Under the pieces are notes generated by a model, which worked only from the letters and a program-made list of their open reading frames with translations, was not told where the DNA came from and did not search any database. From the NCBI GenBank assembly GCA_963745025.1, contig CAVUWD010000005.1, positions 183,860-247,859 of the forward strand: 64,000 bases of DNA, read 5' to 3'. The stretch is from an uncultured delta proteobacterium (lineage in GTDB: Bacteria > Desulfobacterota > Binatia > JACPRU01). Below, piece by piece: positions 17,422-21,309 of the stretch. Each line of letters starts with the position of its first letter. Position 1 is the first letter of the stretch. Position numbers and translations under genes: made by a program.

Positions 17422-18838
17422 ACGGTGCTTCCGGGAGAACGCTCCCGCGGTAGAACACTGCTCGCTTCGTCTGGTGGAAGAGCGAGAAGAGCACCTCTCG
17501 GTGCGCCGCGGCGTGTTGGAGACGGTTTCGAGTTCGCTCGACGTCGGGGCCATGGTCTCCGTGGTCGACGACGGCGGCATGGGTTATGCCGCGACCTCGG
17601 ACCTCACCGCCTCGGGCTTGCGGCATGCCGTCGATCGAGCCCTCGCCTGGGCACGAGAGACGCGCGGCCGCGGTCTCTTCGATCCAGCCAGGCTCATTCG
17701 GGCTCCGCGGGTCGGCGAGTATGCGAGCGTCGTGCGGATTCCCTGGGACTCCGTTTCCCTCGGCGACAAGATCGACCTCTTGCGCATGCAGAGCGAGCGA
17801 CTCAAGTGCGACCGCCGGATCGAGGACTGGGAGGCGGGTCTCTGGTTCACCGCGAAGGAGACTCTTCTCGTGAGCGCCGGCGGCGGTTGCCTCCGCCAGC
17901 GCTTCCAGCACCTCCTACCGACGCTCTCGGCGAGCGCGAACGAAGGCGCCGAGACCCAGACGCGCACGTTCGGCGGTCACGCCTATTGCCGCCAGGGCGG
18001 CTTCGAGGTGCTCGAAGAAACGGGATTCGGCGAGGCGCCCGCGCGGATCGCCGCCGAGGCGCTCGAGCTCCTGTACGCGCGGAACTGCCCGAGCGGCATG
18101 ATGGATCTTCTGCTCGCGCCGGACCAGATGATCCTCCAGATCCACGAATCGATCGGGCATCCGCTGGAGCTCGACCGCATTCTCGGCGACGAGCGGAACT
18201 ATGCCGGGCGAAGCTTCGTCACGCTCGACATGTTCGGCCACTATCGCTACGGCTCGGAGCTCCTGAACGTCACGTTCGATCCCACTCGGCGCGGGGAGTT
18301 GGCGAGCTACGCGTTCGACGACGAAGGCGATCCGGCGACGAGGGAAGAGATCATTCGCGAGGGCATTCTCCTCCGCCCGCTCGGCGGCCGGGTGTCGCAG
18401 GTGCGTTCTGGCATTCGGGGGGTTGCCAGCGCGCGGGCATCGAGCTGGAATCGGCCGCCGATCGACCGGATGGCGAATCTCAACCTCGAGGCCGGCCGGT
18501 CGACCCTCGACGAGATGATCGCCGGCATCGAGCGCGGCGTGTACATGAAGACGAATTGCTCGTGGTCGATCGACGACTCGCGCAACAAGTTCCAGTTCGG
18601 CTGCGAGTGGGCGCGGCTCATCGAGAACGGGCGCCTCACCGCGGTCGTCAAGAACCCCAACTACCGTGGCATCTCCGCGACGTTCTGGCGAGGCTTGAAG
18701 GCCGTCGGCGACGCCGACACCGTCGACGTGCTCGGCACACCCTATTGCGGCAAAGGGGAGCCGAATCAGGCGATCGCCGTGGGGCACGCCTCGCCCCCGT
18801 GCGTGTTTGCCGACGTCGACGTGTTCGGCGGCGCGTGA
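17405..18838 (+). CDS. tldD: TldD metalloprotease subunit
   Basis: HESIGHPLELDR (HExxxH), PIDRMANL, NKFQFGCE and CGKGEPNQ motifs. Confidence 0.9.
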   Translation: MWEDVERCFRENAPAVEHCSLRLVEEREEHLSVRRGVLETVSSSLDVGAMVSVVDDGGMGYAATSDLTASGLRHAVDRALAWARETRGRGLFDPARLIRAPRVGEYASVVRIPWDSVSLGDKIDLLRMQSERLKCDRRIEDWEAGLWFTAKETLLVSAGGGCLRQRFQHLLPTLSASANEGAETQTRTFGGHAYCRQGGFEVLEETGFGEAPARIAAEALELLYARNCPSGMMDLLLAPDQMILQIHESIGHPLELDRILGDERNYAGRSFVTLDMFGHYRYGSELLNVTFDPTRRGELASYAFDDEGDPATREEIIREGILLRPLGGRVSQVRSGIRGVASARASSWNRPPIDRMANLNLEAGRSTLDEMIAGIERGVYMKTNCSWSIDDSRNKFQFGCEWARLIENGRLTAVVKNPNYRGISATFWRGLKAVGDADTVDVLGTPYCGKGEPNQAIAVGHASPPCVFADVDVFGGA

Positions 18839-18842
18839 CGTG

Positions 18843-20165
18843 ATGGAAAGCTATTTCCACGACGTCGCCGCGATCGTCACGAGCCTGGTTCGAGGGCAAG
18901 AGATCCACCTCTCGAGCTTCTACGGCGAGGATTCGGACTTCGTGCGGATGAGTCAGGGACGGGTGCGGCAAGCGGGCGCGGTGGCGATGCGCTCGCTGAC
19001 GGTCGACCTCATCCGCGGCCGGCGGCATGCGTCAGGAAGCGTATCGCTCTCGGGTGACCTCAAGCTCGATCGCATGCGCATCGCTCGGCTCGTCGAGGAT
19101 CTCCGCGAGCGCTCGGCGGTGGTGCCCGAGGATCCGTTCCTCCTCTACGCCACCGAGCCGCGCTCGAGCGCGCGCCGCTCCGAGAACCGATTGCCGGGCG
19201 GCGGGGAGGCGCTCGAGGAGATTCAGTGCGCGGCGCGGGGCCGTGATCTCGTCGGAATCTACGCGGCCGGAGACATCTACTGCGGCTTTGCCAACACGCT
19301 CGGCCAGCGCAACTGGTACGCCAACTCGAGCTACAACCTCGACTGGAGCTTCGTGCGCTCCGCCGACCGGGCGGTGACCGCGAACTATGCCGGGTTCGAG
19401 TGGAAGCGGGAGGAGCTCCAGCGGAAGGTCGACGCTGCACTCGCGGAGCTCGAGCTGCTGTCGCGCCCGGCGCGCACGATCCCGCCGGGACGATATCGCG
19501 TCTACCTCGCTCCGGCTGCGCTCAGCGACTTTCTCGGCCTTCTCGGCTGGGGTGGATTCGGTCTGCGCGCGCACCGCAGCAAGACGACGCCGCTGCTGCG
19601 CATGATCGAGCAGGGCCAGCGCCTGCATCCGAGCGTGCGGCTCGTCGAGAACACGTGCGCGGGCCTCGCCCCCGATTTCCAGGAGGAGGGATTTCTGCGT
19701 CCCGACCAGGTGCCGCTGATCGAGGGTGGAGCGTACCGGGAGTGCCTCGCTTCGCCGCGCTCGGCGGCCGAGTATGGAGTGCCGACGAACGGCGCCTTCG
19801 CGGCGGAAATGCCGCAGTCTCTCGAGGTCGGCGCCGGCAGCGTCCCTCGCGCGGACGTGCTTCGGCAGCTCGGCAAGGGAATCTACATCGGCAACGTCTG
19901 GTATCTGAACTACTCGGACCGTGTCGCGTGTCGCACGACCGGTATGACTCGGTTCGCGACCTTCTGGGTCGAGAACGGGGCCTTGCAAGCTCCGCTCGAC
20001 GTCATGCGCTTCGACGAGACGATTTATCGGATGCTCGGCGAGAACCTCGTCGGATTGACGGCCGAGCGCGAGTGGATCCTCGATCCGAGCACGTACTCGC
20101 GGCGCTCGACCGCGACCACGTACGTGCCCGGGGCGCTGATCGAGGACTTCCGGTTGACGTTGTAA
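18843..20165 (+). CDS. TldE/PmbA-like partner subunit
   Basis: TldD/PmbA fold motifs (PGRYRVYLAP, WYLNYSD..TGMTRF) without HExxxH; directly follows tldD. Confidence 0.85.
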   Translation: MESYFHDVAAIVTSLVRGQEIHLSSFYGEDSDFVRMSQGRVRQAGAVAMRSLTVDLIRGRRHASGSVSLSGDLKLDRMRIARLVEDLRERSAVVPEDPFLLYATEPRSSARRSENRLPGGGEALEEIQCAARGRDLVGIYAAGDIYCGFANTLGQRNWYANSSYNLDWSFVRSADRAVTANYAGFEWKREELQRKVDAALAELELLSRPARTIPPGRYRVYLAPAALSDFLGLLGWGGFGLRAHRSKTTPLLRMIEQGQRLHPSVRLVENTCAGLAPDFQEEGFLRPDQVPLIEGGAYRECLASPRSAAEYGVPTNGAFAAEMPQSLEVGAGSVPRADVLRQLGKGIYIGNVWYLNYSDRVACRTTGMTRFATFWVENGALQAPLDVMRFDETIYRMLGENLVGLTAEREWILDPSTYSRRSTATTYVPGALIEDFRLTL

Positions 20166-20170
20166 CGTCG

Positions 20171-20554
20171 CGGGGGTCGTGGGTCATCGTGGCGATCGCC
20201 GCCGCGGTGGAAGGGGGCGTTGCCCCTCTAGTAAGGCCTCAGTTTTTGCCTCGAATACTTGTGGAGGACAACCGCGCGGAGCGCGGCAGGCAGTAACCCG
20301 CGAGTTGGTGCATTGCCTTCCGCGCTTGCGCGCGGTGGCTGGATTCTCCGGTTGACCCGAGTACGGGCCGACCGGAGAATCCAGCGCTTCGGAATCTCGA
20401 GCGCTCGAGGCAACACTGAGCGGATACCCAGCGCGCCGCTTTATCGGAATTGTTTCGACCGCTCGTAAGCTGTAAGCCAATTGTGGGGTAACAACGATAA
20501 AGCGGCAACGTCTCCTTCGCCATCTGCCCAGGTCCCAAAATGACCCACGCCCCG
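20171..20554 (+). ncRNA. Candidate large structured non-coding RNA (family not recognised)
   Basis: Nested helices span the whole intergenic region: 20178-87/20540-49, 20210-24/20504-18 and 20238-54/20405-20; hairpins at 20271-336, 20338-385 and 20435-506. Most imperfect pairs are G-U on the + strand. Confidence 0.55.
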
Positions 20555-20559
20555 GGCCG

Positions 20560-21309
20560 GTGAGCTTCTGGAAGAACTACTTTGCCGCGTATGCCGGCGA
20601 GTACCGGCGTTTTCGCCCGACCTATCCGAGCAGGCTGTTCGAGATCCTGGCCGACTTGAGCCCCGCGCTGCGGCTCGCGTGGGACTGTGGAACGGGAAAC
20701 GGACAGGCGGCGCTCGCGCTCGCGGCGCACTTCGAGCGCGTGGTCGCTACCGATGCGAGCCAGGAACAGATCGCACTGGCGACGCTCCACCCGCGTGTCG
20801 AGTATCGAGTCGCCCCCGCGGAGAACGGCGGGCTAGAGGATTCTTCGGTGGATCTAGTCACCGTGGCGCAGGCCGTCCACTGGTTCGACCTCGATCGTTT
20901 CTACGCGGAGGTACGGCGCGTGGCCCGCCCGCGTGCGGTGATCGCCCTGTGGTGCTACACGCTGCTCGAGATCGATCCGGCGATCGACGCGCTGATCGAG
21001 CGATTCTATGCCGACGTCGTCGGTCCCTACTGGCCGAAGCAGCGCGTTCAGGTCGATCGGGGATATCGGGATCTGCCGTTCCCCTTCGAGGAGCTCACGT
21101 CCCCGAGCCTCGCGGTGGAGGCGGAATGGAGTCTCGCCCAGCTCCTCGGCTACGTGGACACCTGGTCGCCGGTACGGATCTTTCGGGAGAAGAGGGGTGA
21201 GGACCCGCTAGCCGAGCTCGCCGAGCCGCTCGCGCGAGTCTGGGGAGAGCCCACGTGCGTGCGGCGGGTGCGTTTTCCGCTGTGCTTCCGGATCGGCCGC
21301 GTCGCGTGA
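20560..21309 (+). CDS. Class I SAM-dependent methyltransferase
   Basis: FRPTYP, WDCGTGNGQAA and AQAVHWFD motifs. Confidence 0.9.
   Translation: MSFWKNYFAAYAGEYRRFRPTYPSRLFEILADLSPALRLAWDCGTGNGQAALALAAHFERVVATDASQEQIALATLHPRVEYRVAPAENGGLEDSSVDLVTVAQAVHWFDLDRFYAEVRRVARPRAVIALWCYTLLEIDPAIDALIERFYADVVGPYWPKQRVQVDRGYRDLPFPFEELTSPSLAVEAEWSLAQLLGYVDTWSPVRIFREKRGEDPLAELAEPLARVWGEPTCVRRVRFPLCFRIGRVA

Follow-up and report, generated by a model that had tools for sequence, protein, structure and literature searches.

Three nested palindromic mobile repeats probably make up a strongly folding gap between tldE and a methyltransferase gene

Bacterial MITEs include the Correia (CREE) elements of Neisseria, the ERIC (IRU) elements of enterobacteria and the RUP elements of pneumococci, and hosts are reported to make use of elements of the REP, BIME, Correia and ERIC types. 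Y1 (IS200/IS605-type) transposition is not known to leave a target duplication, and 8-bp flanking duplications are not expected of REPINs. Elements of the IS66 family have terminal repeats that start with GTAA and are flanked by an 8-bp duplication. One such element from the ISBst12 group, ISDge4, is described in PMC12898284: its terminal repeats are GTGACTACTCAGCA/GTAACTGCTCAGCA, its duplication is 8 bp long and its only transposase has 449 aa. For the GTAA/8-bp rule applied here, this is the one published example drawn on. REP classes tagged with GTAG/CGTC are described in PMC3733652. A review of MITEs (PMC10969869) gives them as typically AT-rich and describes MITE transcripts that form stable stem-loops able to act as regulators.

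Here we analyse the gap between a tldE-like gene and a methyltransferase gene within a 64,000-nucleotide stretch of DNA (the window) from an uncultured delta proteobacterium, whose genome is assembled into 20 contigs totaling 5.65 Mb with an estimated contamination of 7.6%. The original prediction was that this gap encodes an undescribed large structured RNA on the + strand. We conclude that it is very probably not an RNA gene, but a nest of three mobile repeats, all palindromic, in which each of the two inner ones lies inserted in the repeat around it (Table 1). The flanking gene calls were borne out, with PmbA/TldD domains in two upstream ORFs and a class I methyltransferase downstream, the start of which is kept in a genome of the same genus, G001 (TTG AGC TTC TGG). 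A protein-coding reading of the gap itself was dropped because none of the four overlapping ORFs that were tested there had a Pfam match.

Table 1 Features of the gap and of the genes on either side (positions in the window)
Feature	Positions	Strand	Basis
tldE/pmbA-like gene (context)	18807..20165	+	ORF; Pfam PmbA_TldD_3rd E 4.2e-18; stop TAA 20163-20165
Outer repeat 'family 2', low-copy, MITE-like, palindromic; ends GTCGTGGGTCAT... / ...CCAAAATGACCCACGCC	20176..20551		Profile matches, alignment
REP-like hairpin, outer half of left arm, severed from remainder by MITE	20210..20224		Pairs with 20504-18
IS66-type MITE copy, 197 nt, variant without hairpin A (the family's first hairpin)	20231..20427	+	nhmmer 158.8 bits; alignments
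MITE left terminal inverted repeat, GTAAGGCCTCAGT...	20231..20254	+	14/15 first nt as in terminal repeat of 1,882-bp IS66-family element
MITE hairpin B	20271..20336	+	87.9% of cells paired in 65 aligned copies
MITE hairpin C, 22-bp stem, 4-nt loop	20338..20385	+	95.9% of cells paired over 65 copies
MITE right terminal inverted repeat, degenerate here, ...CACTGAGCGGATAC	20405..20427	+	Alignments; 3/15 ungapped matches to IS end
REP-like hairpin, rest of left arm (20435-52), loop and right arm (~20478-20518)	20435..20518		Perfect repeat 20435-46/20495-506
Conserved asymmetric right part of family 2, ACGTC.CCTTC.CCATCTG..CAG.TCCCAAAATGACCCAC	20508..20552	+	Best-conserved alignment block, 12 loci
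Class I SAM-dependent methyltransferase gene (context)	20560..21309	+	Pfam Methyltransf_11 E 1.2e-16; GTG start

Fold of the gap

The end-to-end folding that drew attention to the gap is real, and on both strands it lies far beyond shuffled controls. The + strand had an MFE of -212.5 kcal/mol compared to a shuffle mean of -162.8 (sd 5.0; z = -9.9), a value equaled by none of 100 shuffles, and the - strand reached -199.5 kcal/mol (z = -7.3). Each of the proposed helices was recovered at its place: an outer stem with perfect pairing (20178-87/20540-49), two further stems (20210-24/20504-18 and 20238-54/20405-20), a hairpin of 22 nt with 91% complementarity and a 4-nt loop (20338-59/20364-85) and a helix that is a perfect 12-bp inverted repeat (20435-46/20495-506). 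These stems are the paired ends of three nested palindromes. The outermost is formed by the ends of family 2; the second stem and the 12-bp helix are arms of the REP-like hairpin; the third stem consists of the left and right terminal inverted repeats of the MITE, and the two long hairpins are palindromes of its interior.

In a nest of palindromes any single strand, whichever of the two it is, must fold end to end, and such a fold therefore requires no selection on an RNA. G-U pairs had been taken as the mark of a + strand RNA, an interpretation that was not confirmed, as the - strand also folds far better than shuffles. The strand asymmetry did not hold across the family either: when 37 near-full copies of the core repeat were compared, no more than 22 folded more stably in the family orientation, and we accordingly rejected asymmetry as evidence that an RNA is under selection. 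Because differences between the strands of these copies range from -22.5 to +16.6 kcal/mol, the 13 kcal/mol difference at the locus is within ordinary copy-to-copy scatter.

Repeat families at the locus and a presumed IS66 partner

In the nest that we propose, the outermost layer would be the low-copy, MITE-like family 2, the middle layer a REP-like hairpin within it that also occurs alone elsewhere in the genus, and the innermost layer a MITE of ~100 copies, placed in the left arm of the REP-like hairpin. The repeat families, their ends, their target duplications and their absence from orthologous sites of the sister species are all directly observed, as follows.

The MITE is the most abundant of the modules. 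An nhmmer profile gave 100 non-overlapping matches on 16 of the 20 contigs, summing to 18.7 kb (0.33% of the genome). Correspondingly, the middle 152 nt of the gap (20269-20420) has dozens of genome matches on most contigs at 77-90% identity, and its flanks are nearly unique; the copy nearest to that in the window shares 93% identity with it over 144 nt. Near-full copies span 191-272 nt, with terminal inverted repeats that start as GTAA[C/T/G]GCCTCAGTCTTCGCC and end in the complement, GGCGAAGACTGAGGC.TTAC. With gene calls that are crude, 86 of the 100 matches lie at least 80% outside predicted genes. Relative to flanking genes that share a strand, copies are oriented the same way in 22 cases and the opposite way in 22, and they are somewhat commoner between convergent genes (24/86) than gaps in general (614/3,209). 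In hairpin C, compensatory changes occur somewhere in the family at 16 of 21 pairs (65 copies), with one pair split UA 15 / CG 14 in a 30-copy alignment. Hairpins A and C resemble REP doublets, the apex of one being the reverse complement of the other's.

The family is thus short and non-coding, with terminal inverted repeats, dispersed copies and ends shared with an IS, and it also has target-site duplications, which the window copy lacks. In 16 of the 37 near-full copies the 8-mers on the two sides agree at no fewer than 7 of 8 positions, 9 of them perfectly, compared to 0/37 when the same copies are shifted by 40 nt. The 8-mers on either side of the window copy, CCCCTCTA and CCAGCGCG, agree at 2/8; shifts of up to 3 nt raised this to 5/8 at best, which is the control level, and a model with extra bases between the duplication and the ends, judged by eye, was unconvincing. 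The case for a simple insertion at exactly 20231-20427 is weakened by the absent duplication and the degenerate right end.

Among 41 related genomes searched, the MITE family was limited to this genus. When the hairpin apex was scanned against one genome per species (185,579 species), multiple matches were found in one MAG only, from an uncultured delta proteobacterium, and the other five records were single matches in unrelated taxa. The sister-species genome G001 has a tldE-methyltransferase spacer of ~92 nt with unrelated sequence, compared to 394 nt in the window, and the whole insert is absent from it. All three orthologous sites examined in G001 were empty (the window locus, C6:284637 and C8:191823), with flanks at 76-91% identity. 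The insertions at the tldE-methyltransferase locus would then postdate the split from the sister species.

A candidate partner for the MITE is present in the same genome as three identical 1,882-bp elements. They are bounded by a terminal repeat of 19 bp without mismatches (GTAAGGCCTCAGTCTCCGT) and flanked by duplications of 8 bp (AACGATCG and CTTCTGGA). Each has one ORF of 468 aa, a transposase with zf-IS66 and DDE_Tnp_IS66 domains (PF03050 (DDE_Tnp_IS66), E 6.2e-38; PF13005, E 1.1e-6) that scores 218.5 bits on the NCBIfam model transpos_IS66 (NF033517; cut-off 180). None of the three other + strand ORFs inside the element matched an IS66 accessory family, the sole match among them being DUF6788 at 27.0 bits, just below the cut-off of 27.2. 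Of their first 15 nt the MITE and the IS have 14 in common, and their interiors show no similarity; only ~15-19 terminal bases are common to the IS and the window copy. Based on these ends, we infer that the MITE is mobilised by an IS66 transposase: it would be moved in trans by the enzyme of the 1,882-bp single-ORF (ISBst12-like) element, which would bind the common GTAA..CCTCAGTCT termini and integrate by an 8-bp staggered cut. A search of G001 (82% complete) did not turn up the 1,882-bp IS, though G001 has 23 MITE matches, and the IS66 element that G001 does have is 2,436 bp long with different ends (GTAACCGTTCAC). Because no IS with matching ends was found in G001, the pairing of IS and MITE rests on one genome.

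Family 2 is much rarer, with seven two-ended copies in the genome: three of 61-67 nt, which carry the outer ends only, three of 150-159 nt, and the window copy, which is swollen to 376 nt by the nested elements. A 20-mer from its right part had 16 matches in the genome with up to 4 mismatches. In a fixed register, flanking direct repeats agree at 46/72 positions compared to at most 26/72 in shifted controls; one copy has a perfect flanking repeat (GCGGACTC), and that of the window copy is weak (4/8). No pair of family 2 ends at IS distance, as an autonomous parent would have, was found in the genome, and a partial IS66 gene at C2 was dropped as a candidate parent for want of matching ends. Of six loci returned by a metagenome scan, one was an orthologue of the C16:813 copy, another a short form and the remaining four chance matches in AT-rich coding DNA. 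We did not file family 2 with the GTAG/CGTC-tagged REP classes, because its GTAG is in a paired stem and it has flanking duplications.

The hairpin between these two layers is an inverted doublet of a ~25-30 nt unit. This unit gives most of 37 matches in G001, several of them as close opposite-strand pairs, and a 20-mer from it had 21 matches in the host genome with up to 4 mismatches. At C16:813455-813640 and C16:950921-951095 the outer element and its hairpin are uninterrupted, and the hairpin arm that the MITE splits in the window is continuous.

Possible host use, another proposed source of mobility and the RNA-gene reading

Three of the 100 MITE copies (the window copy, C11:480737 and C14:220177), belonging to different subtypes, are found within or abutting one and the same rare hairpin, GGGGACGTTGCGGC...GCCGCAACGTCCCC (rough Poisson p about 0.002 or less). 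Any targeting of hairpins by the MITE would be directed by structure or by sequence. Since their pairing is kept by compensatory changes, the internal hairpins of the MITE may be functional modules, either required for mobilisation or of use to the host. The full proposition, in which the MITE is drawn to REP-like hairpin stems, its internal hairpins are functional and the composite serves as a leader or insulator of the methyltransferase gene, is in our estimation unlikely.

Host use could also take another form, with the mobile debris now acting in cis, as RNA or DNA, either as a 3' stabiliser or attenuator of tldD-tldE or as a 5' leader or promoter of the methyltransferase gene. Compared with G001, the insert has replaced the whole region upstream of the methyltransferase, and hairpin C contains a sigma-70-like site on the + strand (20352-20380; TTGACC, 17 nt, GAGAAT; 9/12), where shuffles give a mean of 0.1 such sites. 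This site is a consensus match only, however, and its TTGACC is specific to the window copy. The modest excess of MITE copies between convergent genes and the regulatory stem-loops described for MITE transcripts (PMC10969869) also speak for such use, but the copies have no orientation bias and no site resembling an intrinsic terminator was found on the + strand. We consider such use to be distinctly improbable; the locus is ordinary selfish DNA.

According to a different account of the mobility, the core repeat is REPIN-like and was moved by a RAYT (Y1) transposase, its resemblance to IS ends being coincidental or secondary. The genome does have two Y1_Tnp genes, and the protein of one of them (C13:187849-188862) scores 74.6 bits on the NCBIfam model REP_Tyr_transpos, which is under the curated 80-bit cut-off. 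The REP-doublet appearance of hairpins A and C is also in line with this account, as are hairpin-C-like units that stand alone in a genome of another genus (G005, 4 matches) and the presence in G001 of MITE copies with no matching-end IS in the assembly. However, the clean 8-bp duplications and true terminal inverted repeats of the MITE family, with their near-identity to IS66 ends, speak against a Y1 element. The repeats beside the Y1 gene on C11 match 0/100 MITE loci, and the unit that lies ~110 nt upstream of the C13 gene is one of the inner family 2 hairpin rather than of the MITE; no clear second unit was found beside that gene. Movement of the core repeat by a RAYT is therefore very improbable, and the IS66-type MITE remains our preferred identification.

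A locus-specific + strand gene for a new large structured RNA, as originally predicted, has an extremely small chance of being correct and is close to refuted. The very strong fold speaks for it, together with the greater stability of the + strand and the ORFs of the gap without Pfam matches. The compensatory changes in the MITE hairpins, which count against our own reading, would also be expected of a functional structure in RNA or DNA. Such an RNA would also be new, as the prediction had supposed: Rfam 15 gave no match at the gathering score in the whole 64-kb window. Permissive searches of the gap returned only sub-threshold microRNA models (best 19.7 bits compared to a threshold of 82), and at four loci with uninterrupted or partial outer elements the best microRNA model reached 35.8 bits compared to 73; we rejected these matches, which are typical of any long hairpin. 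Against an RNA gene, each helix is accounted for by a repeat module that is present elsewhere, the - strand folds too, the asymmetry of the strands is not family-wide, and MITE copies take both orientations with respect to neighboring genes. Two checks proposed along with the prediction, of copy number and of empty sites, also went against it, with 100 dispersed MITE matches and target-site duplications in the family and with an orthologous spacer in G001 that is free of the insert. The alternative offered at the same time, a non-autonomous mobile element, is the one upheld by the many dispersed copies and their target-site duplications; it was right in kind, but three nested elements rather than a single one occupy the locus.

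Public sequencing runs bear on both transcription and assembly. Matches were found in 20 runs, none of which had half of the sampled words and three of which are recorded as RNA. In the contigs of four of these runs, RNA contigs cover part of tldE (19886-20136) and elsewhere only a 34-nt piece of the MITE, where their flanks are unlike those of the window and the match is probably another copy; no RNA contig over the gap was found, and because these are assembled contigs only, they do not serve to judge its transcription. An odd contig joint from 20574 to 20087 was disregarded, as its sides are <30 nt. An artefact, in which assembly from the metagenome collapsed repeats or joined them wrongly, has an almost negligible probability: repeats are prone to assembly error, and the assembly has 20 contigs and some estimated contamination, but a contig from a public DNA run bridges the right junction of the MITE (20356-20523, 1 difference) and others join the right junction of the outer element to the methyltransferase gene (20491-20761, 2 differences) and the end of tldE to the left end of the outer element (19910-20179), support that is only partly independent in that the best-matching run may be the source sample, and that leaves the left MITE junction (20230/20231) bridged by none of the listed contig pieces.

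Place among known elements

Nested palindromic transposons produce just the signal seen here, a very strong fold z-score over an entire intergenic gap, and genomic copy number should therefore be checked before a non-coding RNA is called. The locus adds, for a soil lineage that is uncultured, a MITE family of ~100 copies with ties to a single-ORF IS66 (ISBst12-like) element, a second MITE-like family without a parent and a possible insertion preference for REP-like hairpins; it touches none of the long-standing open questions. No description of an IS66-derived MITE was found in the literature searched, and IS66 is unmentioned in the available portion of the review PMC10969869.

With the large structured RNAs (RNase P, 6S, tmRNA, SRP, group II introns, OLE, GOLLD and ROOL) the gap element has only size and strength of folding in common. 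In contrast to the large RNAs of Rfam, it is multi-copy and modular, and the sister species lacks it at the orthologous site.

The likeness to REP/REPIN-RAYT systems and BIMEs is closer for the inner hairpin, which is an inverted doublet with a unit beside a Y1/RAYT-like gene (a match below the cut-off). As a combination of different palindromic modules, the locus as a whole is like a REP/BIME mosaic. Family 2 differs from REPs and REPINs in that its GTAG is within the paired end rather than in an unpaired tag, and in its 8-bp flanking duplications.

The 1,882-bp IS resembles the ISBst12 group in its GTAA start, 8-bp duplications and single transposase ORF; in that group, ISDge4 has GTAACTGCTCAGCA-type ends according to PMC12898284. 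The window MITE differs from the group in that it encodes nothing.

The core family is most like the bacterial MITEs, for which BOX of pneumococci and QMITE of Coxiella are further known comparators. It is ~130-270 nt long, non-coding and mostly intergenic, with terminal inverted repeats, target-site duplications, very stable single-strand stem-loops and ends common to an IS of the same genome, in keeping with the general features listed in PMC10969869. Judged by its sequence, the family appears to be new and of a kind already known. It departs from a typical MITE in being G+C-rich and in having an interior made of two or three long hairpins that vary separately.

Nested palindromes between tldE and the methyltransferase gene

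The gap between tldE and the methyltransferase gene, whose products carry PmbA/TldD and class I methyltransferase domains as originally predicted, folds end to end far beyond chance. As RNA, its + strand (20166-20559) reached -212.5 kcal/mol compared to a mean of -162.8 (s.d. 5.0) for 100 dinucleotide shuffles, none of which was as stable (z = -9.9), and its - strand reached -199.5 kcal/mol (z = -7.3). The predicted helices were also recovered: 20178-87 and 20540-49 are perfect complements (stem 1), 20210-24 pairs with 20504-18 (stem 2) and 20238-54 with 20405-20 (stem 3), 20435-46/20495-506 is a perfect 12-bp repeat (stem 4) and the long hairpin 20338-59/20364-85 has 22-nt arms (91% complementary) and a 4-nt loop. 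Pfam gave no match for four ORFs tested in the gap.

While real as an observation, this fold is ordinary in nature, being that of mobile repeats. The core (20231-20427) is a MITE; around it lie a second MITE-like repeat (family 2, 20176-20551) and a REP-like inner hairpin. Stem 1 comes from the inverted ends of family 2, stems 2 and 4 from the arms of the REP-like hairpin and the two long hairpins from the MITE's own palindromes. Stems 2 and 4 share bases because the MITE splits the left hairpin arm (20210-24 and 20435-52) and leaves the right arm (20478-20518) intact. As the MITE ends are inverted complements, stem 3 represents its terminal inverted repeats. Nested in this way, palindromes must fold along their whole length, whichever strand is taken. 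The proposed novel structured RNA is thus very unlikely, given folding on both strands and stems that coincide with ends and arms of nested repeats. Its supporting argument, that G-U pairs indicate a + strand RNA, also fails at the family level: the family orientation was more stable in only 22 of 37 MITE copies, with strand differences from -22.5 to +16.6 kcal/mol.

Features of the gap, the repeat families and the IS66-family elements (bare coordinates, window; C, contigs of the window's own genome, G000)
Feature	Location	Strand	Description
tldE stop	20163-20165	+	TAA
Methyltransferase start	20560	+	GTG
MITE left end			GTAA.GCCTCAGTCTTCGCC + linker
MITE hairpin A			After left end and linker; absent from window copy
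MITE hairpin B	20271-336
MITE hairpin C	20338-385
MITE right end			After linker; inverted complement of left end
IS66-family element (1,882 bp)	C19:80230-82111
Two IS66-family elements (1,882 bp)	C6:484414-488185		Tandem, head to tail, 8 bp (CTTCTGGA) between
MITE copy in or against REP-like hairpin	C14:220176-220478		GGGGACGTTGCGGC...GCCGCAACGTCCCC; clean duplication ACGTTGAG
MITE copy in or against REP-like hairpin	C11:480650-481016		GGGGACGTTGCGGC...GCCGCAACGTCCCC
Uninterrupted outer element	C16:813455-813640
Uninterrupted outer element	C16:950921-951095
Outer element, end			GG.(A/C)GTGGGTCAT..TGGCGATCG
Outer element, long hairpin			GACGTTGCGGCATTATCGGAATTG ... CAATTCCGATAATGCCGCAACGTC
Outer element, conserved block			CCCCTTCACCATCTG..CAGATCCCAAAATGACCCAC

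The core MITE and its IS66-family partner

Compared to its own genome (5.65 Mb, 20 contigs), the 394-base gap gave 70 matches, the repeated portion being only query positions 104-255 (window 20269-20420), at 77-90% identity and on most contigs; BLAST coverage was 1-5 matches in the flanks versus 80-108 in this middle, with 80 merged loci. Alignment of copies revealed a usual element longer than the window copy, and a profile built from 15 copies found 100 non-overlapping matches (18.7 kb, 0.33% of the genome), 37 of them near full length. Flanking 8-mers were identical at seven or more of eight positions for 16 of the 37, nine perfectly (for example, CTCCCGCC, GATCGTCC and GGCGCTCG), compared to 0 of 37 with flanks shifted by 40 nt. 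Based on crude, GC3-based gene calls, 86 of the 100 matches were at least 80% outside genes; between same-strand neighbours, 22 were oriented with the genes and 22 against. On these features the core is a bacterial MITE and works like one, in line with the non-autonomous mobile element that the original prediction offered as its alternative.

The window copy has no target duplication: its flanking 8-mers (CCCCTCTA and CCAGCGCG) agree at two of eight positions, its right end is degenerate and GCC is all that the hairpin arm has in common on either side of the cut. A sigma-70-like match at 20352-20380 (+; TTGACC, 17 nt, GAGAAT; 9/12) lies inside hairpin C, directed towards the methyltransferase gene; its TTGACC is unique to this copy, the others having TCGACC.

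The MITE occurred in 3 of 41 genomes (40 relatives plus its own), with 37 matches in its own genome, 23 in a sister species of the genus (G001) and four, covering just the hairpin C part, in G005, which belongs to a different genus of the family. The hairpin C module could therefore predate the MITE carrying it. All 33 genomes from other families of the class lacked the MITE. The four hairpin-C-only units (for example, L041 172-245 and L044) match at 83% over about 70 nt. A scan for the hairpin apex in one genome for each of 185,579 species, which may omit records of the window's own genome, yielded nine loci: four in a single MAG (title, 'uncultured delta proteobacterium') and five single matches in unrelated taxa, about the chance level for a 19-base pattern in 596 Gb.

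Three of four DDE_Tnp_IS66 matches in the own genome fall in identical 1,882-bp elements, whose 19-bp terminal repeat (GTAAGGCCTCAGTCTCCGT) is perfect and whose 8-bp duplications are AACGATCG and CTTCTGGA. In the tandem pair, the intervening 8-mer recurs directly after the second copy, indicating that one element inserted right beside the other. Each of the three elements contains one 468-aa ORF, which combines a zf-IS66 with a DDE_Tnp_IS66 domain and scores 218.5 bits on NCBIfam transpos_IS66 (cut-off 180); no IS66 accessory family matched the other + strand ORFs within the element, which identifies the single-ORF (ISBst12-like) kind. MITE ends share 14 of their first 15 nt with the IS ends, and so does the left end of the window copy (GTAAGGCCTCAGT), with no similarity between interiors. 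IS66 ends generally start with GTAA. A 2026 paper (PMC12898284) reports a single transposase, an 8-bp duplication and ends GTGACTACTCAGCA/GTAACTGCTCAGCA for ISDge4, a member of the ISBst12 group.

A single-ORF IS66 element is the most likely origin of the core MITE, and we infer its mobilisation by the 468-aa transposase. Counting against mobilisation, searches of G001 (82% complete), G005 and a third genome, G006, did not find the 1,882-bp DNA, and the IS66 element of G001 is 2,436 bp with different ends (GTAACCGTTCAC). No description of an IS66-derived MITE was found in the literature, whether among the best 15 of 1,631 papers from a broad search or in a MITE review, where the term 'IS66' does not appear; the family is new relative to the sources searched, with ISfinder and Dfam outside that scope.

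Hairpin conservation and the locus in a sister species

Across 65 MITE copies, hairpins A and C were 97.6% and 95.9% paired, with a compensatory change somewhere in 12 of 22 and 16 of 21 pairs, respectively, and 89.7% of all cells were paired compared to at most 85.0% in 200 shuffles. In a 30-copy alignment, such changes affected 11 of 57 predicted pairs, with a covariation term of just -0.2 kcal/mol and most of the signal in one pair (UA 15, CG 14). Compensatory changes of this kind would be expected of a functional RNA too. The aligned copies are paralogues within one mobile family; their pattern indicates that hairpins were retained in the master copies and does not demonstrate a functional RNA from this locus.

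In G001, tldE (88% identity) adjoins the methyltransferase gene (83%, start conserved) across ~92 unrelated bases. Two more MITE loci with perfect duplications are empty there, with flanks 76-91% identical and gaps shorter by about 276 and 410 nt. All three sites examined for empty alleles thus lack the repeat in G001, which fits insertion after the species split, with loss in G001 as the alternative. Misassembly is argued against by contigs from other public DNA runs that bridge three junctions of the nest; the best-matching run may be the source sample.

At 20540-20562, repeat insertion replaced the entire upstream region of the methyltransferase gene. A purine-rich GGGGGA lies a few bases before the TTG start in G001; in the window, CCCCGGGCCG precedes the GTG, with no obvious ribosome-binding site, and a short ATG ORF (ATG ACC CAC ... 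TGA) from the repeat's end overlaps the start.

Family 2 and the REP-like hairpin

The window MITE's flanks match a few other places in the genome, and Rfam has no family matching the uninterrupted outer copies. A family 2 profile found further copies (12 loci aligned). Seven copies are two-ended: three short forms (61-67 nt) that consist only of the ends, three (150-159 nt) that also contain the inner hairpin and the 376-nt window copy. In one fixed register, flanking 8-mers of nine copies matched at 46 of 72 positions, whereas shifted controls reached 26 of 72 at most; the duplication is perfect (GCGGACTC) in one copy and agrees at 4/8 in the window copy. Given this agreement, family 2 also resembles a small transposon-type repeat; neither the own genome nor a metagenome scan yielded a parent IS. 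Nesting may be a habit of family 2. On an unrelated soil metagenome contig (L079, about 190-330), a short unit seems to enclose a second partial unit, with CCAGCGG on either side.

The inner hairpin acts as a module of its own: it is the source of most of 37 matches in G001, several being close opposite-strand pairs, and the family 2 outer ends have no match there. In the own genome, a Y1 transposase gene has one unit ~110 nt upstream of it; as that protein scored 74.6 bits against REP-associated tyrosine transposases, below the 80-bit cut-off, we apply no label beyond REP-like. Inside or abutting this rare hairpin are three MITE copies that differ in subtype (p 0.0015 or lower in a rough Poisson estimate, for which the number of hairpins was guessed at ~10, each 150 nt long, and the non-coding DNA was estimated crudely); the hairpin may be an insertion hot spot for the MITE.

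A second Y1/RAYT-like gene (G000:C11:419866-420189) is flanked by a 30-45-nt unit at 419173-419203 and about 420340-420385. This unit matches no MITE locus and forms close inverted pairs elsewhere, at five or more places (C16:144077-144183, C5:17468-17570 and C6:242252-242354 among them); together, gene and units look like a classic REPIN-RAYT system.
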